Part shown: positions 1,254-24,011 of the stretch, piece by piece
Position numbering within the stretch: the stretch's first letter is position 1
How the letters are laid out: each line of letters begins with the position of its first letter
From: a virus
Lineage: Duplodnaviria; Caudoviricetes
Virus record (IMG/VR): IMGVR_UViG_3300037419_000414
Location: 1-24,737 of that record
Length of the DNA stretch: 24,737 nucleotides
Reading direction: 5' to 3' (one strand)
Made by a program: the position numbers and the translations under genes
The notes under the pieces: generated by a model
Seen by the model: only the letters and a program-made list of their open reading frames with translations
Databases searched by the model: none
Told to the model about the DNA's origin: nothing

Positions 1254-3740
1254 TTATCGGTGCCCCCCCAGGCTGTTGTACCTCGGAGCCCGTTTCGGCG
1301 ACGTCTCGCCGGGCTCCCACCAAAACTCTTGCCCTTGTTGCTTTACTCTCCGCTGTGTCGCCCGCCACGACCTTGCGTAATCGGGATCGATCTCCTTCTG
1401 CATTTGATCCGCTACAAGCCGCTCAAATGCAACCCTCGACCACCAAATCGAATTGCCCGGCGCTTCCTGCTTGAACGCCTTAACGAGATCGCGGCCAGGG
1501 TGAGCCTTTTTGTCGCCGAGCCCGGCGCGGATCAGCGAGAAGCCGGCGCCGCCGATATTGGCGGCCGAGCTCGCCAGCGGCCCCGCGGCCGTTTCGCCGG
1601 GACCGCCGCCGAAGCGGTTTTCCGTCGAGCCGAGAAAGTCGCCGTAAATGCCCCAACCGCCGCCCTGCAGCGTCGCCTTGCCCCAAAACTCGGCGTGCTT
1701 GATCACTGGATCCTTGCCCGTCGGGACCGGCTGCGGATCCTCGCCCTTCGACAGCGCTTTCAATTCCATCGCCGCAGCGCCGCCGAGCGTGGTCAGGATG
1801 AAGAAGGCGGCCGCATAAGCGGCCATGCCGCCCGTCGAGCGCTCGAGCATCCGGCGGCCGTGCGTCATGAGCAGCGTGATCCCGAAGGTTTTGAACAGCA
1901 GAGCCGAGCGCGCCATTTCGCCCCAAAAGGTGCCCTTTGGAGCGATGCTGTTCATGAGCGCGCGGGTGCGAAGATCGGCCGCCGGCACGGCGTAATCGGT
2001 TTCCGTCTGGATCATCTGCAGCAGCCGATCGCCGGCGAGCTGATCTTCGACGTTCTGCGGCAGCAGCCACGCCGCTCCGCGATGCTCCTCGAGCGGCGCC
2101 TTGCGGATAATGTCCCATGTGTCGGCGCCGATCCCGTGCCGCTGCATTGACCGCTGCAGCGCCGGGTTGAGCTCGTCGAAGCGCTTTCCGACTTGGTTCG
2201 TCAGGTGCGACAGGAACTCCATCCCGAACGCCCATCGTCCCGCCTGGGTGTAGGCGGCGAGGCCCGAGACGCGGAGCGTCCCCTCGGCCAAGCGGCGTGC
2301 GACCTCGCCGGTCAGCTCCTCATTCAAGATGCGGTGCTGCGCTGCGGTCATGCGCGACCATTCCTCCGCGATCAGCCCGGCGCGCACCGCGAGCCGCCGG
2401 TCCTCGTCGGACAGCGGGTTAAGGTGCTTCAGATAGCCGCCGAACATTTTCCACGCCGGGAGCCCGTTGAACTTGCGGGTGACTGCCCCGAACGCCGGAT
2501 CCGTCGGCAAGGCCGAGAGGATCGCCGAGCCGAGCTTGGCCGACGTCTCGATCGCGCGGATCGTTCCAAAGCCGAGCGCGATCCGATCGCTCTCCGGGCG
2601 GCCGAGCTCGCCGGTAATCTGCTTGTAGAGCCGCTCGATCTTGGGCGCGTGCGCCTTTGCCCGGTCGATCGCCTTGCCGCCCGGCGACGTGTCGAGCTCG
2701 GCCGACTTGCGGATCGTGTCCTGCAGCCAGCGCACCGTCGCCTTGGGGTTCGGGCCAAGGATCTCCATCAAGGCGATATCCCGGCTCATCGCCTCGATAT
2801 GCCCCATCATCGCGTCGAACGGCGTCCCGGCGCCGAACTGGCGCTGATAGGTCAGCCACGATTCGGCGTCGCGGAAATGCAGGAAGCGGTGCTCGGCGTG
2901 CTGGTTGGCGAGCATCTTTCGGCCGTTGCTTGCGCCCGGCGTGATCGAGCTCCATCCATCCGTGCGGATCTTCTCGAAGGCGTCGCGGAGCGCGATCTCG
3001 AGCGCGGCGTCGGTCATTGGCTCGCCGGTCAGCCGATCGATCATTCGGCCGCGATCGAGCAGCGGCACGATGAAATTGCGCCACTGATCGAAACCGGCGG
3101 CGCGGAGCAGCCTCGAGCTGTGGCTCTGCGGCAATCCCCAATTGTCGAGCTTGCCGATCTGCCCGCCGGCTTCGTTGAAGCGGGCGCGGAGATACTCGGC
3201 CGCGCGGCTCCAAGCGTCGGCGAGCTCGCGCGCATATTCGTTGCGGCTCGAGCCGGGGTTGAACAGCTCGCGCACGATATCCTCGAGCTGCGCCAGGTTG
3301 CGGATCTTGCCGATCACGTTGCGGTGATGATCGGCGAGGATATCGGCGATCATCGCGTGCGCGCGGCCCTTGATCGCGTGCATCCTCGCCCAAACCGTAT
3401 CGTTGTGCCCGGAGCGGCCGTCGAAGCCGAACAGCGCTTCGGCGCCGCGCGGATCGAGCGGACCCTTGCCGGCGGGATCGCCGCCGTTGAACGTCCGCAT
3501 CTTCTCGATCGCGCGCTGTTGCGCCTTGATCTGGCGGATCGTGTTCGCCTTCTTGTGCGCTGCGGCCGCCTCGAGGCGCTCGATCGTCTTTTGCGAGGCG
3601 AGCGCCGCGGCCGTCTCGGGATCGTGCGATCGCTCGTAGAAGCGCCGGAGCTCGGCGTAGAGCTCGAGCGCCTCCTTCGATCGGCCGACGTCGATCTCGC
3701 CCTTGCGCTCGAGATCCGGCAGACAGCGATCGAGGCTCAT
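1254..3740 (-). CDS. Large internal virion/DNA ejection protein (membrane-associated, gp16-like position), 828 aa
   Basis: Last large gene before the fibre, mostly helical, with hydrophobic Gly/Ala-rich C-terminal segments (MAAYAAAFFILTTLGGAAAM; LQGGGWGIYGDFL). Start placed at the ATG at 3740 because of the ATGA overlap with the upstream stop. Confidence 0.75.
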   Translation of the reverse strand: MSLDRCLPDLERKGEIDVGRSKEALELYAELRRFYERSHDPETAAALASQKTIERLEAAAAHKKANTIRQIKAQQRAIEKMRTFNGGDPAGKGPLDPRGAEALFGFDGRSGHNDTVWARMHAIKGRAHAMIADILADHHRNVIGKIRNLAQLEDIVRELFNPGSSRNEYARELADAWSRAAEYLRARFNEAGGQIGKLDNWGLPQSHSSRLLRAAGFDQWRNFIVPLLDRGRMIDRLTGEPMTDAALEIALRDAFEKIRTDGWSSITPGASNGRKMLANQHAEHRFLHFRDAESWLTYQRQFGAGTPFDAMMGHIEAMSRDIALMEILGPNPKATVRWLQDTIRKSAELDTSPGGKAIDRAKAHAPKIERLYKQITGELGRPESDRIALGFGTIRAIETSAKLGSAILSALPTDPAFGAVTRKFNGLPAWKMFGGYLKHLNPLSDEDRRLAVRAGLIAEEWSRMTAAQHRILNEELTGEVARRLAEGTLRVSGLAAYTQAGRWAFGMEFLSHLTNQVGKRFDELNPALQRSMQRHGIGADTWDIIRKAPLEEHRGAAWLLPQNVEDQLAGDRLLQMIQTETDYAVPAADLRTRALMNSIAPKGTFWGEMARSALLFKTFGITLLMTHGRRMLERSTGGMAAYAAAFFILTTLGGAAAMELKALSKGEDPQPVPTGKDPVIKHAEFWGKATLQGGGWGIYGDFLGSTENRFGGGPGETAAGPLASSAANIGGAGFSLIRAGLGDKKAHPGRDLVKAFKQEAPGNSIWWSRVAFERLVADQMQKEIDPDYARSWRATQRRVKQQGQEFWWEPGETSPKRAPRYNSLGGHR

Positions 3741-6700
3741 AGACAATCCTTCATGGCTTTGATCGCCTTGTCGTCGTCCTCGAGATCGGCGAGGAGATCG
3801 GCGGCCGAGATCTCGCCGCCTTCCTCATCGAGCCGGAACGACGGCTGATCGGCATTGTCGAACAGGCCGAGCCCCATCGTGCCGAGCTGCTCCTCGCTCG
3901 AGCGTAGCGGAGCGGCCGCCCCGAGCTCGGTAAGCTGGCGGTTCGTCTCGGCGATCGCCGGATCGGTTTGCGCGCCGAGATCCAGCGCGCGATCGTCGTT
4001 CGCCATAACCGGCTGCAGCGCCAGCTTGGGATTGAGCTCGCCGTCGCGCTCGAGAGCGTAGCCGGCGCCATATTGCCGATCCCACTTGCCGCTGTCCCAA
4101 CCAAGGCCGGCGGCGCTCGACCGATCGGGCCGCGGTTCGCCAAGCCACCCCCTCTTGAAGCCGTCTGTCCAATCGCGCGCGTTGGCTTCGTTCTTTAGGG
4201 AATTGCCGCTTCCATGCGGCGCCTTCTTCGCCTTGGCGAGAGCCGTCGCGGCGAGCGCGTCGAATTGCTCCGGGGTTACTCCCGCCGGGAGCTCCCCCGA
4301 CACGTCGGCCGACGGTGCCTTGTCGAGCTCGCCGAGCGCTTCGCGCACGCCGATCGTGCGCTCGTTGCCGAGCACGCGTATCTCGCGCGGCTTACCCGTC
4401 GCTGCCGCGTAATAGGCTTCGATATAGCCTTGCCGGGGATTGTAGCCGTTCGGCTGAAACCGATCGGCGCCGGCGAGGGCGCGCTCCGCTTCGCTCCGTA
4501 GCTTGGAGAGATCGCCCGCCTTGCCGTCGATCCAGCCACGGACCATCGCCTCGGCGACCCCGCTCTCGCGGTGCGGCATGTCCTCCTTGCCGCGCGCGGT
4601 CATGGACGCGACAGCGTCCTTGAACGGCTTGCTTTTCCAGACGTCGGCGAATTGCTCGGGTGAAACGTCGGTGCTTGCCACGACGGCCGACGCAGCCTCC
4701 GGCTCGAGGTAGCGGGTGAGCGCCTCGGCCATGTGGATGCGATCGATCCGCTCGGACCCCGCAAGATGCGCGATCGCCGCCGCGCGGATCATAAGGGCCG
4801 GGTTTTTGCCGACAAGGAAAGGGTGCTCTTTCGTCACCGCCGCAAGCAGGGCTTCCGCTTCGGCCGTCGGCTTTTGCGAAAGGATCGGCGAAAGGTCAGC
4901 ACCATAAGCCCGGCTGATCTCGCCCTCGCGATCGGCCGCCGTCGACGGCCGCGGATCCGTCGCGCCGTGATACTTCACGCCTTCCTCCGTGAACTGAAAC
5001 CAAACCTCTTGCTCGCCGGCGCCGGCCTTCGCCCTGGCTCCGCTCTTGCGGTACGCGTGGACGTATTCCACTTCCGGGTGCTCGGCGTGGAGCTTGGCAA
5101 ACAGCTTGCGGATCTCGGCGGCGCCGAGCTCGGCGCTATCGTTGACGTCGCCGATGTTGAAGCCCTCGATCGTGTCTCCGTCGAGCGTGTAATTGCCGCC
5201 GACTGCGGTCCCGTCCTCGGCGACGTAGCGGAAGCGGTGATAACCGGGCTCATCGCCGGCGAACGGCTCGATCGTGCGGAGCTCGCCGGGCTTTGCCTTC
5301 TCGAGCTCGGCCGACGCCGCCTTGATCTTCTCGCGCCGGGCGGCGCGCGCTTCGACGTCGGCTTTGAGATCGTGGGTTAGGCTCTCGGCCTGTTGCTTGA
5401 CCGCCGGGCCGTCAGGATCGGAAAATCTCTCGGTAGCGCGCTCGAGCTCGGTTAGGCTCGGCTGTTCCGGATCCCCTGATTGCGAAGGTAATTGCGGACC
5501 TTCTTCGCCAGTGTCGCCCCCGCGTCCTGCTCCATCAACTGCGAGACGACTTGCATCGTCGTTGGCAGCCTCTCCGGCGAGAGCGGCGAGATCGGCTCGG
5601 CGGATTGCTCGGGCGGCTTCGTCGGCGACGTCGGCGAGTTTGCCGCCGGCGGCGAGCTTTGCGGCCGCCTCGTTGAGCGCATCGGCAACGGCGCCGCGAC
5701 TGAACGCGAGCCTTGCGACGATCTCGAGGGCTTGGGCATTGGCCTGGGCTTCCTTCTCGCTTGCCGACTTGGCGATTTTCGAGCCGACCGCCTCGAGCGT
5801 GTCGGCTTCCTTCGCCGCCGTGTTGAACACTAGCTTAGATTTGCGGAGGTTGGCGAGTACCTTCTCGAGCACCTTCGCCCGCTCGAGCATGAGCGAGGTA
5901 ACGTGCGAGTGCGAGCCGAACAGGTCGACTTGCTCCTCTTTGTGAAGCCCGGCTGCGATCCCCTGCCGAACGATGCTCTCGGCTTGCCCGCGGTTTGCCG
6001 GATCGAGCTTGGCGAGAAGGCCGATCATCGCCTCATGCGCCTCGGGCTGATCGGGCAGCAAATGGCCGATCACGGCCGCGAAATCGGCGGGAACGACGTC
6101 GTTATAGACCGCCCCGAACGCCGCGTCGGAAAGCCGCGCGAGCGCCGCTCCGTCGCGCACCAGCGCCGACTTTGGCGGCAGATGCTCGAGCACGTGCGGC
6201 CCGGCGTCGCGAATGACCTTGGCCGCGTCGACGGCCGTCCCGGTGCCCTCGGCGATGTTCTTCAGCGCCGCATAGACCCGCGCATCCTCGGCCGAGATCC
6301 CGTCGGCTTCGCGGAGCACGATCGCATCCATCCGAACCGGCTCGCCAGTTTCGGCTTGGATCCGGCGCGCGAGGCCGTGCCGTTGGTGCCCGTCGGCGAG
6401 GAACGCTCGGCCGTCCTTGTCCTCCCAAACGACGACGCGGCCAGCGTAGAGCGGATTCCACTCCTTCACGCCGCGCAAGCGATCGGTCACTCCGAGCTCG
6501 TCGCCGCCGGCCTTGAACTGGAAGCGGTTCGCGTCGACGGTGATATCGTCGACGTTGAAGCTCCGCGCGTACATCGGCGGCGGTGCGGCCGACGCCGAGC
6601 TCGCCGGCGCTCCGATCACTTGATCGTCGAGCTGCAGCGCGTCGTTGTTGAGCTGTGCGATCAGCGCATCGTCGGCGCCGCTCGCCGGATCCAGCGCGCC

Positions 6701-8725
6701 GGCGTCGCCTCGAGCGGAAACCGACGCGACTTGCCGGCCCATCTTGCCGTGTGCCCAGGCGGCGACTTCGCTCGCCGACTTGCCGCGAAGGAAGGGATTG
6801 CTGTTAAGCACGTCGGCCGAGACGAGCCGCTCGATCGGCGTCGACGCGTCGGCCTTAAGCACGCGAATTGCGTCGCCGCTTCCGAGAAAGTGAGCGAGGT
6901 AGAGATTGCCGTCGTTGACGCCCTCGCCGGCGCGCTGCAGCGCGGCCGCATTATCGCGGGTCAGGCGGTCAAGGAGCCGGGCTTGGACTTCGGGGTTGTT
7001 CTTGAGCTCGCGCGCCGGGTGAGCGCCGGGATCCTGCCCGTAAACCTTGCGGTAATAGTCGCGGAACGTCGGATCGGTGAATTGCGCGGGACCGCTCGCC
7101 GAGCTGTTCGGGTTTTTCGCGTTGACGTCGCCGGTCGCGTTCTCGGCGTGATAGACCTTGCGCTGGAAGCTGGCGATCGCTTCCTCGGGCGCTTGCTGGA
7201 TCTGCGGCCGCCGGGCGGTGGACAAAGCCGCCGGCGGCCGCTCCGTGGCGGCCGCTGGCGAAGCCGCTCCGGATCCTTCACCGCCGGAGACAGAAGGAAA
7301 CTCCGTCGGTTCGGGTGTACGTCGATCCTGTAGATCCTTGATCGCCGCCGCGAGGCCGTTCTCATGCGTCGCGTCGCCGGCGGGACCGGGTTGATAAGGC
7401 GAGCTCTCGCCGACTTCCTGCGCCCGGTTGAGCACGTTCGCGGCCGCCTTCTCGTCGGGAGTGAGCTTGCCTTCGTGCGCGTCGTTGGCGAGCTCGGCGA
7501 GCTCGCGGTTGGACAGGCCGGAAAGTGCTTCGCTCGCCGCCTTCCCTTCGCCGCCCAGGCGGGCCGCCCATTTGGCGCGAACGCCTTCGGGCAGCGACGA
7601 AACCACCTTGCCGACAGTGAGCTTGGCGCCGGCGCCGGCGATGTGCAGCGCGGACCCGAACGCTGCGCCGCCGACTGCGGCGCCGGCGACGTTGAGCGCG
7701 GCGTCGCCGAGCGTGTAGCCCTCGCCGAGCTCGGCGCGGTTGTGCGCGACGATCGGCTGCTGGCCGAGCTCGAGCACGCCGTTGATCAGCGCATCGCGGG
7801 CCGCGATCTGGATCAGCGACTTGCCCTCGCCGCCGGGGATCGCCAGCCCCATCACGTTGACGGGATCGTGGAACGATCCGACGGCCGATCCGGACAGCGC
7901 TGCAGCGAAGCCGGTCAGGCCGCGCGGAGATCTCGCGACTGTCGCCTCGTCGGCCGCTTGGGCTTGGCGTTGCTGCTCGAGGAAATAGGCGTGCAGCCCG
8001 TCGACGCTATCGGGCACGCCTTTGAGGAAATCCGGATCCTTGGCGCGGCGCTTCTTGATCTCGGCGACGATCAGGCTCTCTTGCAGCGCCCGATCGGCGA
8101 GGAAGCTGTTCCCGAACGGCACTTGCTCGCCTTGCCGCGCGGCCGTCGCCAGCCTCGAGGGTTGGCCGGCATTGCCGAAGCGCGCCTGACCGGCGGCGTC
8201 GAGATCCGCGTATTCCGCCGGGTTTTCGCTGTTGGGAAGGCCGAGCGCGCGAAGGATCGGCGCATAGCCCTGGGCGATCATGTGATCGTCGAAGGTGCTC
8301 CCGTCGCGCTGTGCGATCCTCGAGTTGGCGTGGAACAGCTCATTGAACGACGCTGCCGGCTCGATCGGCGCGGCCGTCGGCCGAACCGGCGCCATATCCG
8401 GAAGCTGCTCTTGCGTGTCGGCGATCGTGCCCGTGTCGGCGATCGGCGCGAGCTCGGGCTTGCCCTTCTTCGCGGGCGCGGGCGCGCCCGGCTTGAACTT
8501 GCCGGGAACCGCATGGTGGAGCGCGGCGTCGGGATCGGCCGCCGGGACCGGCGCCGGCGGATCCTCGCCGAGCACGTTCGGCGCGAGCTCCGGCGCCGAC
8601 GGGCCGAGCTCGAGCGGCGGCGGCGCATTGGTCAGCCCGGCGTCATGCGCGTGCTGCCATGCCTCCTGCGGCGTCTCGCCGAGCTCGTCGAGCCGATCGG
8701 CCAGGCCAAAGGAGCGACCGGCCAC
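3737..8725 (-). CDS. Multidomain ejection protein: lysozyme/lytic-transglycosylase-like domain, ParB-like domain and C-terminal cargo domains, 1662 aa
   Basis: Lies in the ejection module. Muralytic motifs HAEN...AKNPNSSASGPAQF...LYLAHFLG (about 6740-7170). ParB-like motif VVVWEDKDGRAFLADGHQR (about 6215-6550). Overlaps both neighbouring genes. Confidence 0.8.
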   Translation of the reverse strand: MAGRSFGLADRLDELGETPQEAWQHAHDAGLTNAPPPLELGPSAPELAPNVLGEDPPAPVPAADPDAALHHAVPGKFKPGAPAPAKKGKPELAPIADTGTIADTQEQLPDMAPVRPTAAPIEPAASFNELFHANSRIAQRDGSTFDDHMIAQGYAPILRALGLPNSENPAEYADLDAAGQARFGNAGQPSRLATAARQGEQVPFGNSFLADRALQESLIVAEIKKRRAKDPDFLKGVPDSVDGLHAYFLEQQRQAQAADEATVARSPRGLTGFAAALSGSAVGSFHDPVNVMGLAIPGGEGKSLIQIAARDALINGVLELGQQPIVAHNRAELGEGYTLGDAALNVAGAAVGGAAFGSALHIAGAGAKLTVGKVVSSLPEGVRAKWAARLGGEGKAASEALSGLSNRELAELANDAHEGKLTPDEKAAANVLNRAQEVGESSPYQPGPAGDATHENGLAAAIKDLQDRRTPEPTEFPSVSGGEGSGAASPAAATERPPAALSTARRPQIQQAPEEAIASFQRKVYHAENATGDVNAKNPNSSASGPAQFTDPTFRDYYRKVYGQDPGAHPARELKNNPEVQARLLDRLTRDNAAALQRAGEGVNDGNLYLAHFLGSGDAIRVLKADASTPIERLVSADVLNSNPFLRGKSASEVAAWAHGKMGRQVASVSARGDAGALDPASGADDALIAQLNNDALQLDDQVIGAPASSASAAPPPMYARSFNVDDITVDANRFQFKAGGDELGVTDRLRGVKEWNPLYAGRVVVWEDKDGRAFLADGHQRHGLARRIQAETGEPVRMDAIVLREADGISAEDARVYAALKNIAEGTGTAVDAAKVIRDAGPHVLEHLPPKSALVRDGAALARLSDAAFGAVYNDVVPADFAAVIGHLLPDQPEAHEAMIGLLAKLDPANRGQAESIVRQGIAAGLHKEEQVDLFGSHSHVTSLMLERAKVLEKVLANLRKSKLVFNTAAKEADTLEAVGSKIAKSASEKEAQANAQALEIVARLAFSRGAVADALNEAAAKLAAGGKLADVADEAARAIRRADLAALAGEAANDDASRLAVDGAGRGGDTGEEGPQLPSQSGDPEQPSLTELERATERFSDPDGPAVKQQAESLTHDLKADVEARAARREKIKAASAELEKAKPGELRTIEPFAGDEPGYHRFRYVAEDGTAVGGNYTLDGDTIEGFNIGDVNDSAELGAAEIRKLFAKLHAEHPEVEYVHAYRKSGARAKAGAGEQEVWFQFTEEGVKYHGATDPRPSTAADREGEISRAYGADLSPILSQKPTAEAEALLAAVTKEHPFLVGKNPALMIRAAAIAHLAGSERIDRIHMAEALTRYLEPEAASAVVASTDVSPEQFADVWKSKPFKDAVASMTARGKEDMPHRESGVAEAMVRGWIDGKAGDLSKLRSEAERALAGADRFQPNGYNPRQGYIEAYYAAATGKPREIRVLGNERTIGVREALGELDKAPSADVSGELPAGVTPEQFDALAATALAKAKKAPHGSGNSLKNEANARDWTDGFKRGWLGEPRPDRSSAAGLGWDSGKWDRQYGAGYALERDGELNPKLALQPVMANDDRALDLGAQTDPAIAETNRQLTELGAAAPLRSSEEQLGTMGLGLFDNADQPSFRLDEEGGEISAADLLADLEDDDKAIKAMKDCL

Positions 8726-10779
8726 TAGCGGAGGTTCCTGATATCGAATTGAAAGGGCTTGCCGTCCTTGGTGACAACATGGCCGCCGTCAGGGCCGAGA
8801 AGCCGATAGACGCCCGGGCTCACCGTCTGCAGCCGGTAGTGCGCGAGCTGCGAGATCTGGCTGTCAGAGAGCGGCGTCAGCTTGCCGTCGCTTCCCATGT
8901 AGTGCGGCTCGCCGCCGCCCGCCTTGACCCAATCCGCCTTGCCCGCGCGGCTCATCCGGGTTTGGAACTCGGCGCGGCCCATGTTCTGCGGGAGCCACAC
9001 GTAATGCCCTTCCCAATTGGCGAAGCCGCCCGTCGCGCTGCCCTGCCCCGCGCTCCCGAGCATCCCGCCGGCGCGCTGCATCGCCTGTTGGAAGGTTCCC
9101 GAAAGATCGTCGCCTGTCGGTTCGTGGTGCCCCCACTCGGCGGCGACGCCGGCGGTGATGTTCTGCGCCGCCCGCCAAAGCGCCGGCTGCATGTCGACCG
9201 GGATCGCTTCCGCGTAGGCCGCGAAGGCATCCTTCATCGCCTGTTGATCGGCTTGGCCGGTCTGCTGATCGGCCGTCGAGCCGAGATGGACGGTCTTTGC
9301 CTCGAGCGCCGCGGAGCCGCGCTTGTAGAGCTCGGCCACGCGCGGGTGCAGCCCGACCATGAGCTCGAGATCCTTGTTGCCCGGCGCGATCTGCTTGACG
9401 ATCTGCATTGCGATTGAGCCGCCGAAGGCGTTGCGGAGCGTCGTCGAAGCGTCGAGCTGCCCCGCCGGTCCCTGCTTGATCCGGTCAGTGAAGATCTTGG
9501 CTTCGTCGTTGGAGAGGTACGGCACATTGACCAGCCCCGAGCTCTGCGCGAACGCGCGCGCCCACGTCACTCGAGCTTGCACCTTGGCCGGATCGGGCTG
9601 TGTGAGATCGCCGAGCTCCGGCGCCGGATCGCCGGCGGCCGCGGCCGCTGCGAACGGATCCGAGTTGAAGCGCGCGATCGCCGGCCCCGCGAACTCCTGC
9701 AGGTTCTTCAGGCGCACTTGCTCGGCCGCAGTCGCCTTGCCGGCGGCGACCTTCGCTTGGAGCTCGTTGAGATCGTGGTGGAGCGTCGCCGGAGTCGCGG
9801 TGCGATACTGGCGATTGACGTCGTTCTGATCCTTGATCACGGCGAGATCCCACTCGTCGCCGCCGAGATCGAATTGCTTCGCCAGCGCCGCCCCCTGGGC
9901 GAGCTGATCGTCGGTCAGGACAACGCCGCTCGAGGCTTGCTTTTTGAGGAGCGAGATCTGTTGCGCGGCCGCGGCTTTCTCGCGGTCATATTGCTGCCGC
10001 TGTTCGGCGTCGCGCCGGCGGACTTCGACGTTGGCCGAGTTGCGGAGCGCGTCGATCTGCTTGGGATCGAGATATTGGTTGAAATCCGGGCTCTCGAGGA
10101 TCCCTTTCTTGCCGGTCTTTGCGTCGCCGATGAGCTCGGTTGGATCCTTGTCGATCTGCCCCTGTGCGTAGGAGTAAACGACTGCCGCCTGTTGCTCCTT
10201 GATCAGCGCGTGCTTCTGATCGTCGGAAAGGCCGGCAGTCGAGCCGATCGTGGCGGCGATCGAGGCGAGTTGGTTGGGGAGCGCGGTCAGCGTCGGATCG
10301 GCCGACTGCGATCGCGCGTAAGTGTCCGTCGCCTCCTTGACGTTGGTCGCAAGGTGATCGACGCGCGTCGCCGCTTCCCAGCCATATTCCCGTGTCGAAA
10401 TCTGATCCTTCAGCGCCGCCCAACGCTGCTGAAAGACTTGGCGGATATGCGGATCCTTGATCGCCCCGAGCGCTTGGTTCGAGCGCTCGTCGATCATCTG
10501 ATCGATCGATTGCGTGTGTCCGGCGCCGCCGGGACCGGCGCTCTCGCGCGCGTCGATCGCCGCCTTGTCGAGCTCCGTCGACGCTTGCGCCAGGGCGACG
10601 CCGGCGGCCGTCGCTTGCATATCGCGATCGAGCTCGCGCCGGCGGTGGATCTCCTGATCGAGCAGCTCGCCGCCATATTCGAGCGCGTTGGCGATCGGCT
10701 GTCCGATCCCGCCGGCGGGAGCTCCGGAAAAGTCAGAGCCGACAGAGGGGTTGAGCTGCGGCTGATAGGGACCGGCCAT
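8725..10779 (-). CDS. Internal virion/ejection protein (gp15-like position), 684 aa
   Basis: Ala/Gln-rich helical protein immediately after the gp14-like gene, with a TAATG overlap. Assigned from size and position. Confidence 0.7.
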   Translation of the reverse strand: MAGPYQPQLNPSVGSDFSGAPAGGIGQPIANALEYGGELLDQEIHRRRELDRDMQATAAGVALAQASTELDKAAIDARESAGPGGAGHTQSIDQMIDERSNQALGAIKDPHIRQVFQQRWAALKDQISTREYGWEAATRVDHLATNVKEATDTYARSQSADPTLTALPNQLASIAATIGSTAGLSDDQKHALIKEQQAAVVYSYAQGQIDKDPTELIGDAKTGKKGILESPDFNQYLDPKQIDALRNSANVEVRRRDAEQRQQYDREKAAAAQQISLLKKQASSGVVLTDDQLAQGAALAKQFDLGGDEWDLAVIKDQNDVNRQYRTATPATLHHDLNELQAKVAAGKATAAEQVRLKNLQEFAGPAIARFNSDPFAAAAAAGDPAPELGDLTQPDPAKVQARVTWARAFAQSSGLVNVPYLSNDEAKIFTDRIKQGPAGQLDASTTLRNAFGGSIAMQIVKQIAPGNKDLELMVGLHPRVAELYKRGSAALEAKTVHLGSTADQQTGQADQQAMKDAFAAYAEAIPVDMQPALWRAAQNITAGVAAEWGHHEPTGDDLSGTFQQAMQRAGGMLGSAGQGSATGGFANWEGHYVWLPQNMGRAEFQTRMSRAGKADWVKAGGGEPHYMGSDGKLTPLSDSQISQLAHYRLQTVSPGVYRLLGPDGGHVVTKDGKPFQFDIRNLR

Positions 10780-11222
10780 TAGAGCCCGCCCCCGCCCGAG
10801 CTCGCCGCCGACGTCCCGCCGCCGCTGTAACCGCTGGCAACGGTGCTCGCGATCGTCTCGACGCCGGAGAGGATCCCGCCGGCAAGCGCCGCGCGGCCCT
10901 CGGCATAGGCCATTGCGCCCTGTTGCTTGAAGCCGGCGGCCGCCATGTTCGCCCGCTGGCGCGAGACTGCGAGATCGAGCTCACGGTTGATCGCGCTCTG
11001 CCGCAGCGCGTCGAGCGCCGAGCCGGTTCCCATCTGGAAGCCCGAGCCGCCTTGCTCGACGAGTTGCTCGCCCATCGCCGCTCGGGCCGCAGCGCGGATC
11101 CGGTCGCGCTCGGCGAGGCCGGCGTTCTGCGCGTTCTGCGCGTTCACGTTCATCACTCGGCGGGTGTATTTCCCGGCGTCATAGGCCGAGATCCCGCCGG
11201 CGAACTGGCCGATCGCCTTCAT
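10779..11222 (-). CDS. Small internal virion/ejection protein (gp14-like)
   Basis: 147 aa, Gly/Ala/Gln-rich, with the QGGSGFQMGTGSALD motif typical of the first podovirus core protein. ATGA overlap with the upstream gene. Confidence 0.75.
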   Translation of the reverse strand: MKAIGQFAGGISAYDAGKYTRRVMNVNAQNAQNAGLAERDRIRAAARAAMGEQLVEQGGSGFQMGTGSALDALRQSAINRELDLAVSRQRANMAAAGFKQQGAMAYAEGRAALAGGILSGVETIASTVASGYSGGGTSAASSGGGGL

Positions 11223-16554: not shown

Positions 16555-16806
16555 CTATGCGGTTACGTGCTTCACCGCCCACATGACCGCTTCCTCGACT
16601 TTCGTCTTGGCGATCGAGAGCTCGCGCGAGTTACCGATCGCCACGATCTTGTCGTGCAGCGCGCCGCCGAGATCCTTGATCTCGCGCATGAGCGCTTTTT
16701 CCTCGTCGGTCAGGATGCGGTAAGCGTGCCGAACGGCGTCGGCCGCATTGTTGACCGTGCGATCGTCGCTCTCGCTGGCGACGTGCGTCGCCCCTTCGTT
16801 GTCCAT
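16555..16806 (-). CDS. acb2: Acb2/Tad1-family helical-hairpin cyclic-nucleotide sponge (putative anti-CBASS protein)
   Basis: YRILTDEEKALMREIKDLG resembles the Acb2 N-terminal YRxLSxEE...MNRVKELG motif. SRELSIAKTKVEEAVMWAVKHV resembles T4 Vs.4/Acb2 IAKTKLKEASMWA and the Tad1 SRE...VEEALMW motif (recalled from memory). Own RBS (AAGGA). Confidence 0.8.
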   Translation of the reverse strand: MDNEGATHVASESDDRTVNNAADAVRHAYRILTDEEKALMREIKDLGGALHDKIVAIGNSRELSIAKTKVEEAVMWAVKHVTA

Positions 16807-16831: not shown

Positions 16832-17896
16832 TTACCCTTTGGCCGCCTGGGCGCGGAAGGTGGCAAGCGCTTCGGTCAGGCGGTTGTACCGCTGGATTGT
16901 GACCGGATCCTTGGCGCGGATCTTCTTCCGCGTCTCGGGATCCGCGACCATCGCATCGATCTGCTTTTTGGCTTCCTCCGCGCTCGAGACGCCGAAGCGT
17001 TCCGACGGGCGGCCGCCGTTGCCGGCAAAGAAATCCTCGCCGGCCATTTGGCCGATCTTGCGGAACAGCTCGAGCGTGCGCTTGGCGCCGAAACCCGCCT
17101 CGATCGCCTTCGCGTCGCCCGTTTTCAGGCCGAGCGCGTCGAGCCCGCGGCGGAACTCCTCCTTGCCCTGCTCGGCCGCCGGTCCCCATTCCTTCAAGGT
17201 CGCGTTGCGCTCCGCGACGTTGTTCGCGCCGTCGGCTTGGATGCTCTCGAGCTGCGCGGCCATGAAGCGCTCGCCGAGCTCTTTGAAGGCGGCCGCCGGA
17301 ATATGGTACTTCGCGGCGATCTCCCTCATCGGATCGATAAAGGCGGTGTCGAGCTCGAAGCCCTTGGCGGCCGCCGGCAGATCGACGGCGTAGCCCGACG
17401 CCTCGAGCGGCGCGCCGACGGCTTCCTTGTAAGCTTTCACTTCCGCCTCGGTTGCGCCGTCGCCGGGCAGCTTGACGCGGCCGCTTTCGCGGAGCGCCTT
17501 CTGATTGTCGCGGGCAAGCTGAACGACGGAATCGAGATCCTTGAGCTTGAGCTTGGCGATCCACTCCTGATTGGAGAGCTCCTTTTCGCCCGGCTTGTCG
17601 GCCGAGAAGCTCTTGGCCCATTCGGGGATCTCGAGCTCGCCGCCTTCGCCCTCGCCCGAGCCGTCGCCGGATCCATCGCCCGAACCGTCGCCCGAACCGT
17701 CGCCGGATCCATCGCCCGAGCCGTCGCCCTCGCCGGATCCGCCGCCGAAAAAGTCCTCATCCTCGTCGCCGGCGCCGGATCCGCCGCCGCCGGCGCCCTC
17801 GCCTTCACCCTCGGGCGCCCTCGCGCGCCAGCTTCTTGCGGCCATAAGCGCGATCGCGCCCGTGCTCGCCAGCAATCCCCCCCTATTCACGACCAT
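16832..17896 (-). CDS. Capsid assembly scaffolding protein
   Basis: Lies between portal/Bbp19-like and capsid genes. Acidic Gly-rich N-terminus, VKLPGD...YKEAVGAP...Y and LKEWG motifs. Start set at the ATG at 17896, which has GGAGG upstream. Confidence 0.85.
   Translation of the reverse strand: MVVNRGGLLASTGAIALMAARSWRARAPEGEGEGAGGGGSGAGDEDEDFFGGGSGEGDGSGDGSGDGSGDGSGDGSGDGSGEGEGGELEIPEWAKSFSADKPGEKELSNQEWIAKLKLKDLDSVVQLARDNQKALRESGRVKLPGDGATEAEVKAYKEAVGAPLEASGYAVDLPAAAKGFELDTAFIDPMREIAAKYHIPAAAFKELGERFMAAQLESIQADGANNVAERNATLKEWGPAAEQGKEEFRRGLDALGLKTGDAKAIEAGFGAKRTLELFRKIGQMAGEDFFAGNGGRPSERFGVSSAEEAKKQIDAMVADPETRKKIRAKDPVTIQRYNRLTEALATFRAQAAKG
17657..17728 (-). repeat. Six tandem 12-bp units encoding (GDGS)6 in the scaffold
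   Basis: The units are GGCGACGGCTCG, GGCGATGGATCC and GGCGACGGTTCG, read directly from the sequence. Confidence 0.95.
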
Positions 17897-18221
17897 TGTC
17901 CACCTCCACAAATGCCCGAACCTCGAGAGGGTCGAGCTCCAAAAAATCGATCAGACGATTGACGACTTCGCGCCGGCCCTCGATCCGCGCCATTGACAGC
18001 GGATCGATGCGGCCGCCGAGATCCCGCAAGAACGAGTGCTGCTTGTGCGTCCCGAGCCGCGCGAACGCGCGGAGATCCGCGATCACTCGCTGCGCCTCGA
18101 TCGTCGCGGTGCCGTCGGCGCCGAGAAAGCACGCCTTGACGCAGCGGCCGAGCTCGATCGCCTTGCGGCGAAGGATGCTGCGGACCTTTTCCTCGAGCTT
18201 TTGCGGGTGCAGCACGGTCAC
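17883..18221 (-). CDS. Bbp19-like head-module protein
   Basis: 112 aa directly after the portal (GTGA overlap), with the family motifs AQRVIADL...F and DP...ARIEGRREV. Confidence 0.75.
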   Translation of the reverse strand: MTVLHPQKLEEKVRSILRRKAIELGRCVKACFLGADGTATIEAQRVIADLRAFARLGTHKQHSFLRDLGGRIDPLSMARIEGRREVVNRLIDFLELDPLEVRAFVEVDNGRE

Positions 18222-23492: not shown

Positions 23493-23752
23493 GTGCGCGT
23501 CTCGCGTGCGCGCGCCGGCGCCGGCGAAGGCCCGAGCTCCGGAGGAAGCCAACAGACGTGCCGGAGCTGCGCTTCGAGCCACAGCAGATGCGGCGAGCTC
23601 GCCCACGTCCAAAGCCCGTGCTCGGGATCCATTTGAGCGAGGATCTCGTAGCCTGAACGATCGGCTGCGCCGCGTTGCGCGCGCTCGAGCGCCGCCCGAC
23701 GCGCCGGCGTCATTTCGTAGGGCTGAACCTCTTTGCGGCGCCGATCAGCCAA
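23489..23752 (-). CDS. Hypothetical protein, 87 aa
   Basis: The TTG start overlaps the end of the GapR gene by 8 bp, and the stop overlaps the next start. Confidence 0.55.
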   Translation of the reverse strand: MADRRRKEVQPYEMTPARRAALERAQRGAADRSGYEILAQMDPEHGLWTWASSPHLLWLEAQLRHVCWLPPELGPSPAPARARETRT

Positions 23753-24011
23753 GGCCGAGCGCCTTTCGGTACGTCTCGAGTAGCGCGTCCCATTCTTGCC
23801 GCTGGTGAGGCTCGAGCCGGCGTAGCTTGATGCACGCCTTCATCGCCTTGGGATCGTACCCGTTGGCCTTCGCCTCGGCGAAAACCCCTTTGAGATCTTC
23901 GTTAAGCGCCGCCACTTCTTCGTGGAGACGCTCGGCGCGCTCGATAAAGAGCCGGAGCTGATCCGCGGCGATCGCCGGGCCGCCGCTGATGGAAACGACG
24001 TTGCCGCTCAA
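23745..24011 (-). CDS. gapR: GapR (DUF2312) nucleoid-associated DNA-binding protein
   Basis: AADQLRLFIERAERLHEE...DLKGVFAEAKANGYDPKAMKACIKLR...LLETYRKALG is close to the DUF2312 consensus. TTGA overlap with the upstream gene. Confidence 0.92.
   Translation of the reverse strand: MSGNVVSISGGPAIAADQLRLFIERAERLHEEVAALNEDLKGVFAEAKANGYDPKAMKACIKLRRLEPHQRQEWDALLETYRKALGLG

Follow-up and report, generated by a model that had tools for sequence, protein, structure and literature searches.

The question raised by the phage genome fragment IMGVR_UViG_3300037419_000414 (Duplodnaviria; Caudoviricetes; its 24,737 nucleotides (nt) are called the window here) is how a segment resembling the C-terminal domain of the host recombination motor ComM, also known as YifB, came to be part of a virion protein, and what it might do there. 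The segment is carried by P0001, a polyvalent-like, multidomain internal virion protein of 1662 residues, likely an ejection protein, which is encoded by an open reading frame (ORF) at 3737..8725 on the minus strand (as are all features located in the window below) and has variable cargo after about residue 1125. An initial annotation, made from the letters of the window, had described positions 4709..4920 as a captured, inactivated Mg-chelatase domain of ComM inside a virion ejection protein. Our analysis shows it to be a mobile cassette that occupies a variable cargo slot, and sequence comparisons confirm that this cassette derives from the ComM/YifB C-terminal domain, an AAA+ lid, with a likeness that goes beyond chance. 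The span first given lies inside the cassette, with its end at 4920 falling 17 nt upstream of the first residue of the 65-residue peptide quoted at the time, which corresponds to residues 1275–1339 of P0001 (nt 4903..4709).

The likeness to the Mg_chelatase_C region of ComM, as first proposed, is borne out by protein profiles, a blind genome search and a DNA profile. A hidden Markov model (HMM) of 33 ComM C-termini scored the two copies of the cassette, one in P0001 and one in the related protein P0033, at 16.7 and 18.3 bits, values reached by 0 of 19,441 and 0 of 18,293 shuffled sequences; it aligned to the second copy without gaps over 56 columns and, when run over 1.2 million residues of related phage sequence, returned the cassette copies as its top matches. 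In the blind search, a profile of the two copies was run over 251 genomes of the order of G001 and matched 207 of them at E values up to 1 (best 2.6e-7 per genome), the matches covering model positions 24–76, and the top loci that were fetched were all ComM C-termini (30 of 30). HHalign paired the cassette with ComM at 96.9% (P 1.5e-10) over 55 gapless columns; these mark out a core of three lid helices, homologous to the C-terminal domain of ComM, at residues 1284–1338 (4712..4876). At the DNA level, a profile of 36 comM 3′ ends had a single significant match in the window, at 4716..4792 (nhmmer, 35.2 bits, E 1.1e-10), which is the best-preserved 3′ part of the cassette and still comM-like apart from a one-codon gap; blastn of this region gave 61 of 79 nt identical to the comM of locus L133. 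The Pfam family Mg_chelatase_C (PF13335) itself, which had been proposed as the check, gave a marginal result, with 13.7–13.9 bits (E 0.096 and 0.087, or 0.046 as the best of two copies) against a curated cut-off of 26 bits and a match limited to model positions 70–92 of 94; it is the only family common to both copies, and the wider ComM profiles are supportive. The YifB model of NCBIfam did not match the cassette. On these scores the cassette is neither ComM nor, by the cut-off, a member of PF13335, and is best described as a derivative of it.

Structure prediction is where an origin outside ComM, in another AAA+ lid, a histone-like helix pair or convergence, gains some ground. An unbiased AlphaFold model built from the two copies alone (predicted local distance difference test (pLDDT) 53) matched ComM at E 9 and MCM4 at E 6, with no clear VIA match. 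Adding 44 ComM rows raised the pLDDT to 87 overall and 93–97 in the core, in a model that is partly circular; its top VIA matches were nearly all AAA+ lids (Z up to 8.8, root-mean-square deviation 2.0 over 59 residues, again circular), and with this deeper alignment other lids tied with or outranked ComM (ORC1 8.8, MCM4 8.7, ComM 6.8). We give the predicted structures little independent weight on the matter of ancestry. Against these models and the Pfam score below cut-off stand the 30 of 30 top loci that were ComM in genomes encoding many AAA+ proteins, the match to comM at the DNA level, and eight odd matches fetched from the genome search, five of which were pieces of ComM and three unrelated at 15–17 bits. 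Histone matches in the viral library were short, at E 2 or worse, so that the histone-fold or generic helical alternative that had been raised at the outset fits less well than ComM. An origin outside ComM is largely refuted by these comparisons and is, in our estimate, the least probable of the explanations considered here. A match to RP-C/RepC (E 7e-4 to 0.15) was confined to the N-terminal flank of a single copy, and we discarded it.

The cassette has sharp boundaries and an empty site. It comprises 82 in-frame codons, the ComM-lid-derived module with its flanks (residues 1262–1343; 4697..4942), and is missing exactly from P0004, a protein whose core is identical to that of P0001 and from which residues 1262–1343 are cleanly absent; at the DNA level, the relative L002 aligns with the window up to 4925 and then again from 4697. 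The second copy occupies residues 1129–1207 of P0033 (and is present in its cluster mate P0124), is 44% identical to the first and has the same start and end residues. Its slot differs, in that the P0033 copy comes directly after the anchor motif and not behind another module, and in a 48-row tree of the core the carriers P0001 and P0033 are not sisters and lie on separate branches. The cassette is not an assembly artefact, since locus L001 is 99.96% identical across it, P0001 is recorded on five contigs, and contigs from three runs (X8, X9 and X10, the first of these a possible source of the window DNA) read through it. No contig joint marking the empty site was present in four runs; one low-depth variant contig carried two synonymous changes and one change at the most variable site, a weak observation. 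The C-terminus of P0124 runs out of frame into the next gene, likely through a sequencing frameshift.

Further copies were sought widely. A search of 1.84 billion representative sequences returned only the cassette itself and a repeat-protein artefact, P0123; viral contigs returned only the cassette itself; tblastn of phages at E 10 gave no third lineage; metagenome contigs, word-index searches and the ESM Atlas gave no further copy; and PDB sequence searches with the cassette gave nothing significant. The DNA of the second carrier, P0033, was not found in the metagenome contig search. In BFVD, two phage proteins matched the model weakly, A0A6J5L2Z5 (E 1.6), a 478-residue 'ATP-dependent protease' that is possibly a full ComM, and A0A6J5LA71 (E 4.8), an 802-residue DdrB-like protein that might hold a related cassette.

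Comparison of the two copies with ComM shows which residues were kept and which were lost. Both copies retain 6 of the 17 columns that are at least 90% conserved among the 33 ComMs, namely five that hold small or hydrophobic residues and the His/Glu column in the region of the last helix. Neither copy has any of the four invariant arginines, the helix-2 Thr and Asp or the Tyr at the end of the domain, and the column table thereby confirms the earlier statement that the arginines of the Ser-Ala-Arg (SAR) and ARTIAD motifs are replaced. Also correct was the statement that no ATPase core is present, as the whole-protein scan of P0001 gave no Pfam or PHROG match to an AAA+ ATPase core (Walker A/B) or a Lon-like domain. 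Mapped through PDB 8rxd, the SAR arginine is Legionella R463, named as the arginine finger in PMC11612176. In both copies its position is taken by Gly1306 (gapless register) or Lys1307 (the register favoured by the DNA), within a remodelled loop and start of helix 2 (residues 1300–1309; 4799..4828) that reads E-x-P-F-L-x-G-K-x-P and replaces the arginine-finger segment. At 12 positions the copies share a residue found in 6% or fewer of either ComM sample (33 and 30 sequences), mostly in this loop, and identity between the copies is clustered, with a run of 10 (permutation p 0.005). From these shared, ComM-rare residues we infer one capture, followed by remodelling and then divergence. A frameshift origin of the new loop, suggested by a short likeness in a shifted frame, was dropped, as the DNA profile stops at 4792.

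The protein into which the cassette was inserted is likely an ejected virion protein. Fusion within a virion protein stands as first annotated; the label 'ejection protein' follows from the T7-like gene order and from a PHROG transglycosylase match, and should be read as likely. The transglycosylase-like domain (PHROG 4067, E 4.9e-24; residues 525–698, 6632..7153) supports a role for P0001 in cell entry, and is followed by a match to PHROG 10691 at residues 649–1097; orthologues carry PF18013, PF01464 or PF05838. The core of P0001 has 404 homologues, of which the best 120 are listed, and in 37 of 48 rows, those with a recognisable anchor, the cargo past it ranges from 95 to 1082 residues. Among 30 relatives scanned, this slot holds conflict-type cargo, ART-PolyVal in P0027 and P0042, Zeta-like in P0076 and P0087, and GNAT-like in P0044, as well as YkuD-like matches in two. 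In P0001, the cassette is preceded by a module at residues 1145–1258 (4952..5293) that is found in 16 of 48 orthologues examined, has no significant family match and looks to us, presumably, GNAT-like. It is followed by a module at residues 1349–1455 (4361..4681; 4 of 48 orthologues, no significant family match) and a last one at residues 1478–1570 (4016..4294; 3 of 48, no family match), both of which have Gly-Trp/Gly-Tyr pairs that we take to be like those of ribosome modulation factor folds. A stretch of the conserved core, residues 715–850 (6176-6583), had no match in Pfam or NCBIfam; we assume a ParB-like motif there, possibly the DdrB-like ParB of polyvalent proteins.

The donor of the cassette could have been a host comM or a phage-borne short form of it, and the trees do not decide between them. 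Stand-alone viral mini-ComM genes, which together with the mobile nature of the cassette had escaped the initial annotation, were recovered among 64 viral loci as ORFs of about 160–230 residues (L259:2135-2656, L263:2165-2665 and L265:2153-2665, with others in L255, L246, L252, L251, L256 and L258) that have the zinc cysteines, the lid and a degenerate P-loop region; none was seen in five related phages, in a search that had no positive control. Two loci (L244:545-2689 and L245:545-2689) contain 715-residue frames that end in a ComM C-terminus, have four Cys pairs and match no Walker A pattern, a possible fusion at an insertion site. The cassette copies score 26.8 and 27.6 bits with a mini-ComM profile versus 20.6 and 21.7 with a host profile, and HHalign pairs the cassette with the mini-ComMs at 95.0%; over the last 21 residues, however, host ComM is the closer match (means of 10.2 and 9.4, versus 8.4 and 8.0 for mini-ComMs). 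Trees of 58 columns place the cassette with the mini-ComMs of L259, L263 and L265 on very long branches, and a grouping with sphingomonad ComM is not rejected (p-AU, the p value of the approximately unbiased test, 0.60, with 30 of 57 rows used). The best scores and the match to comM DNA suggest a sphingomonad donor, although significance was not reached in a sample taken without selection (rho 0.27, p 0.16, n = 29). Synonymous identity to sphingomonad comM, at 302 of 643 non-independent codon pairs versus 254.5 expected, does not establish that the capture was recent.

Capture at this phage's own attachment site, as had been proposed, is unsupported, because none of five complete relatives has an integrase or serine recombinase (PF07508, PF00589) and the sole chromosomal relative, L086, lies 3.2 Mb away from comM. 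The window itself falls about 18.6 kb short of a 43,324-base contig carrying P0001. Mobile elements are known to target the gene comM (PMC11472951, PMC12378983), and the 3′ half of a sphingomonad-type comM lies at or close to the end of each of three proviruses (L201:1933-4087, and also at the ends of L200 and L202); beside one of these halves is a 547-residue gene that we take to encode a large serine recombinase. The three comM-flanked proviruses lacked this ejection core and portal, in searches in which no positive control gave a signal.

As to function, we tentatively favour, while rating it somewhat below an even chance, the reading that the cassette is a repurposed, non-enzymatic binding module that enters the cell with the phage DNA. 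The 3′ end of comM would have been captured once, from the host gene or via a phage mini-ComM; its arginine-finger surface would have been remodelled into the E-x-P-F-L-x-G-K-x-P loop with the three-helix core retained, and recombination in the cargo slot would have spread the cassette among related phages. At infection it would be delivered together with the transglycosylase-bearing protein, as synteny and the transglycosylase suggest, and the new surface may then bind a partner that is present at that moment; we would expect this to be a protein of the host or of a defence system, and not ComM or DprA. If that partner were useful on some hosts only, the patchy distribution would be accounted for. 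We prefer a repurposed module to a mimic because a mimic should keep the surface that it mimics, and the cassette has lost the terminal Tyr-Arg and the helix-2 residues, and because the two copies have the fold core and the new loop in common.

Several observations weigh against a binding role. The cassette is known from two lineages only, with a copy in 1 of 119 non-self homologues among the matches listed and in 0 of 80 related viral loci. Its identity between the carriers is the lowest among 12 regions compared (44% versus 50–86%, linkers included), the difference in identity between its first and second halves has a p value of 0.07, and the shared motif could be inherited and structural; constraint on the cassette thus appears modest. 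The low score of the two-copy model, noted above, counts on the same side. So, with regard to the compartment that the cargo would reach, do weak matches in the cargo slot of two relatives to YkuD L,D-transpeptidases (P0014, residues 1328–1462; P0030, residues 1585–1707), a family that acts on the cell wall. Some of these points would suit a tolerated passenger or spacer, that is, a small, stable, host-derived domain that was inserted in frame into a permissive slot and is retained for no reason beyond folding and leaving ejection unhindered, an explanation that we regard as possible if on balance doubtful. Rarity and lowest identity would be expected of a passenger, as would its dispensability (P0004 lacks it) and the fact that the retained ComM residues are mostly core positions; donor DNA would have been available, since mobile elements frequently target comM (PMC11472951, PMC12378983) and some proviruses end in the 3′ half of this gene. 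A passenger accounts less readily for two intact, in-frame copies whose boundaries coincide and which have in common a new motif with 10 identical residues in a row, or for the presence of the cassette in two separate lineages and slots. The G+C content at third codon positions, 0.77 in the cassette, is like the 0.81 of the rest of the gene, which indicates that the cassette has persisted.

The losses at the C-terminal end bear on a different proposal, namely that the injected lid is a decoy for DprA, occupying its winged helix and either blocking the loading of ComM on incoming DNA or tethering DprA to the DNA of the phage. DprA binds exactly this domain of ComM (bioRxiv 10.1101/2024.10.21.619469), and in Rhodobacter DprA and ComM handle the phage-delivered DNA of gene transfer agents (GTAs) (PMC12378983). 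Both DprA and ComM occur in the likely host group (PF17782 in 37 of 41 genomes at the level of the class and PF13335 in 59 of 61), and stand-alone, motor-less mini-ComMs exist in phages. However, neither copy of the cassette has kept the terminal Tyr-Arg, a pair that varies little or not at all in host ComM and in the 12 viral short ComM ORFs that were aligned; acidic residues follow this position in the cassette, and the helix of alphaproteobacterial DprA is likewise acidic. Moreover, the end of helix 1 is remodelled, and the V. cholerae interface residues L455 and R497, placed by way of Legionella numbering, would fall at lost or remodelled places. On this pattern of residues we judge a DprA decoy to be distinctly unlikely. 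We also consider it unlikely, if marginally easier to entertain, that phages have weaponised the DprA-docking lid of ComM more broadly, with free mini-ComMs produced after infection and a virion-packaged, lid-only form intercepting DprA–ComM at entry.

The initial annotation had instead proposed, as one option, that the segment is a decoy that either poisons a host AAA+ ring at DNA entry or recruits it, and for the ring of ComM this idea is weakened by the replacement of the invariant helix-2 residues and Tyr-Arg and by the cassette being the least conserved of the 12 regions. In its specific form, a lid devoid of arginines would dock on the ATPase core of ComM or a related protein and stall it, which would fit the predicted AAA+ lid fold and the specific replacement of the arginine finger, R463. 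In the ComM hexamer the Mg-chelatase domains ring the outside, each closely linked to its own ATPase domain and without contact with one another (PMC11612176). A free lid would presumably have to displace one that is covalently tethered, and the cassette lacks the long upstream helix and, in helix 2, the invariant Arg-Thr-x-x-Asp; we consider ring poisoning very unlikely. Judged by the residues kept and lost, a repurposed binding module or a tolerated passenger fits better than a DprA decoy or a ring poison.

Set beside known systems, the cassette has the homologous three-helix lid of the ComM/YifB C-terminal domain (PF13335; TIGR00368; Legionella ComM, PDB 8rxd/8rxt), with a mean of 15–19 of 54 identities to host ComMs (best 21) and the last helix pair nearly intact. 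It differs from ComM in lacking the Lon-like, ATPase and zinc-finger parts, the first half of PF13335, the arginine finger, other invariant arginines and Tyr-Arg, and in being fused within a virion protein. With the phage mini-ComMs it has in common that it is ComM-derived, virus-borne and without the SAR and helix-2 arginines. The mini-ComMs, in contrast, are free proteins of 160–260 residues that keep the zinc cysteines and the terminal Tyr-Arg, whereas the cassette is lid-only, has neither and is embedded in a virion protein. P0001 resembles the polyvalent proteins described by Iyer et al. 2017 (PMC5512222) in being large and multidomain, in lying among virion genes, and in having a lysozyme-type domain and variable cargo. 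This resemblance holds at the level of the family, whose members carry ART-PolyVal, PBECR1, LPD38, Zeta and GNAT matches; P0001 itself, unlike those proteins, has no Pfam match to a polyvalent domain. The words 'chelatase' and 'AAA' are absent from the main text of PMC5512222, the supplements of which may list such a domain.

Like ejection proteins of the T7 gp16 type, P0001 has a transglycosylase domain and belongs to a gene order of portal, capsid, tail tubes, internal virion proteins and tail fibre. It differs from the gp16 type in having the transglycosylase in an internal position, with a conserved core and then a shuffled cargo slot behind it. The literature searched, which took in few subscription papers, held no description of a ComM-lid fusion or a phage ComM decoy, and the ComM-lid cassette is a rare and apparently undescribed cargo in a known kind of protein. 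Many cargo domains of polyvalent ejection proteins have no known origin, and for this one an origin is now shown: a host AAA+ lid that was captured, lost its catalytic residue, acquired a new surface and was shuffled as a cassette, with its empty site visible in a near-identical phage. The cassette also ties a virion protein to ComM, a host gene repeatedly disrupted by mobile elements, and to the stand-alone mini-ComMs. If the DprA decoy were true, it would be a protein-level phage attack on the recombination of incoming DNA, and directly testable; if a virion-delivered weapon built on the DprA-binding lid were true, it would be a protein mimic acting against natural transformation and GTA recombination. 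We regard the weight of the finding as moderate at present, given two lineages and a partner-binding role that is only a candidate.

The rest of the window (66% G+C) is consistent with a podophage. Its minus-strand genes include those for a terminase, the portal (PF12236), the capsid (PF19821), a tail tube, a small internal virion protein, proteins of 684, 1662 and 830 residues, and a tail fibre, in the order found in T7-like podophages. The small internal virion protein is the first in the ejection-protein block (10779..11222; PHROG 418, E 1.4e-13), and the 830-residue neighbour of P0001 is a virion structural protein (1254..3746; PHROG 684, E 7e-174). The host is likely alphaproteobacterial, because the window encodes a GapR-like DNA-binding protein (23745-24011; PF10073, E 3e-29), the names of relatives with core-protein homologues include Erythrobacter and Novosphingobium, and Alphaproteobacteria or genera of this class appear in the titles of 6 of 11 genome matches. 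Words sampled from the window were 35–100% present in 11 soil or rhizosphere runs, eight of which may be the source of its DNA, and no RNA dataset is listed among the runs holding window words. Between the capsid gene and that for a likely scaffold protein, which has a run of Gly-Ser-Gly-Asp repeats close to its start (16832-17911), is a gene for an Acb2/Tad1 hairpin protein (16555-16806; PF24729, E 1.5e-18), a member of a family of anti-defence nucleotide sponges.

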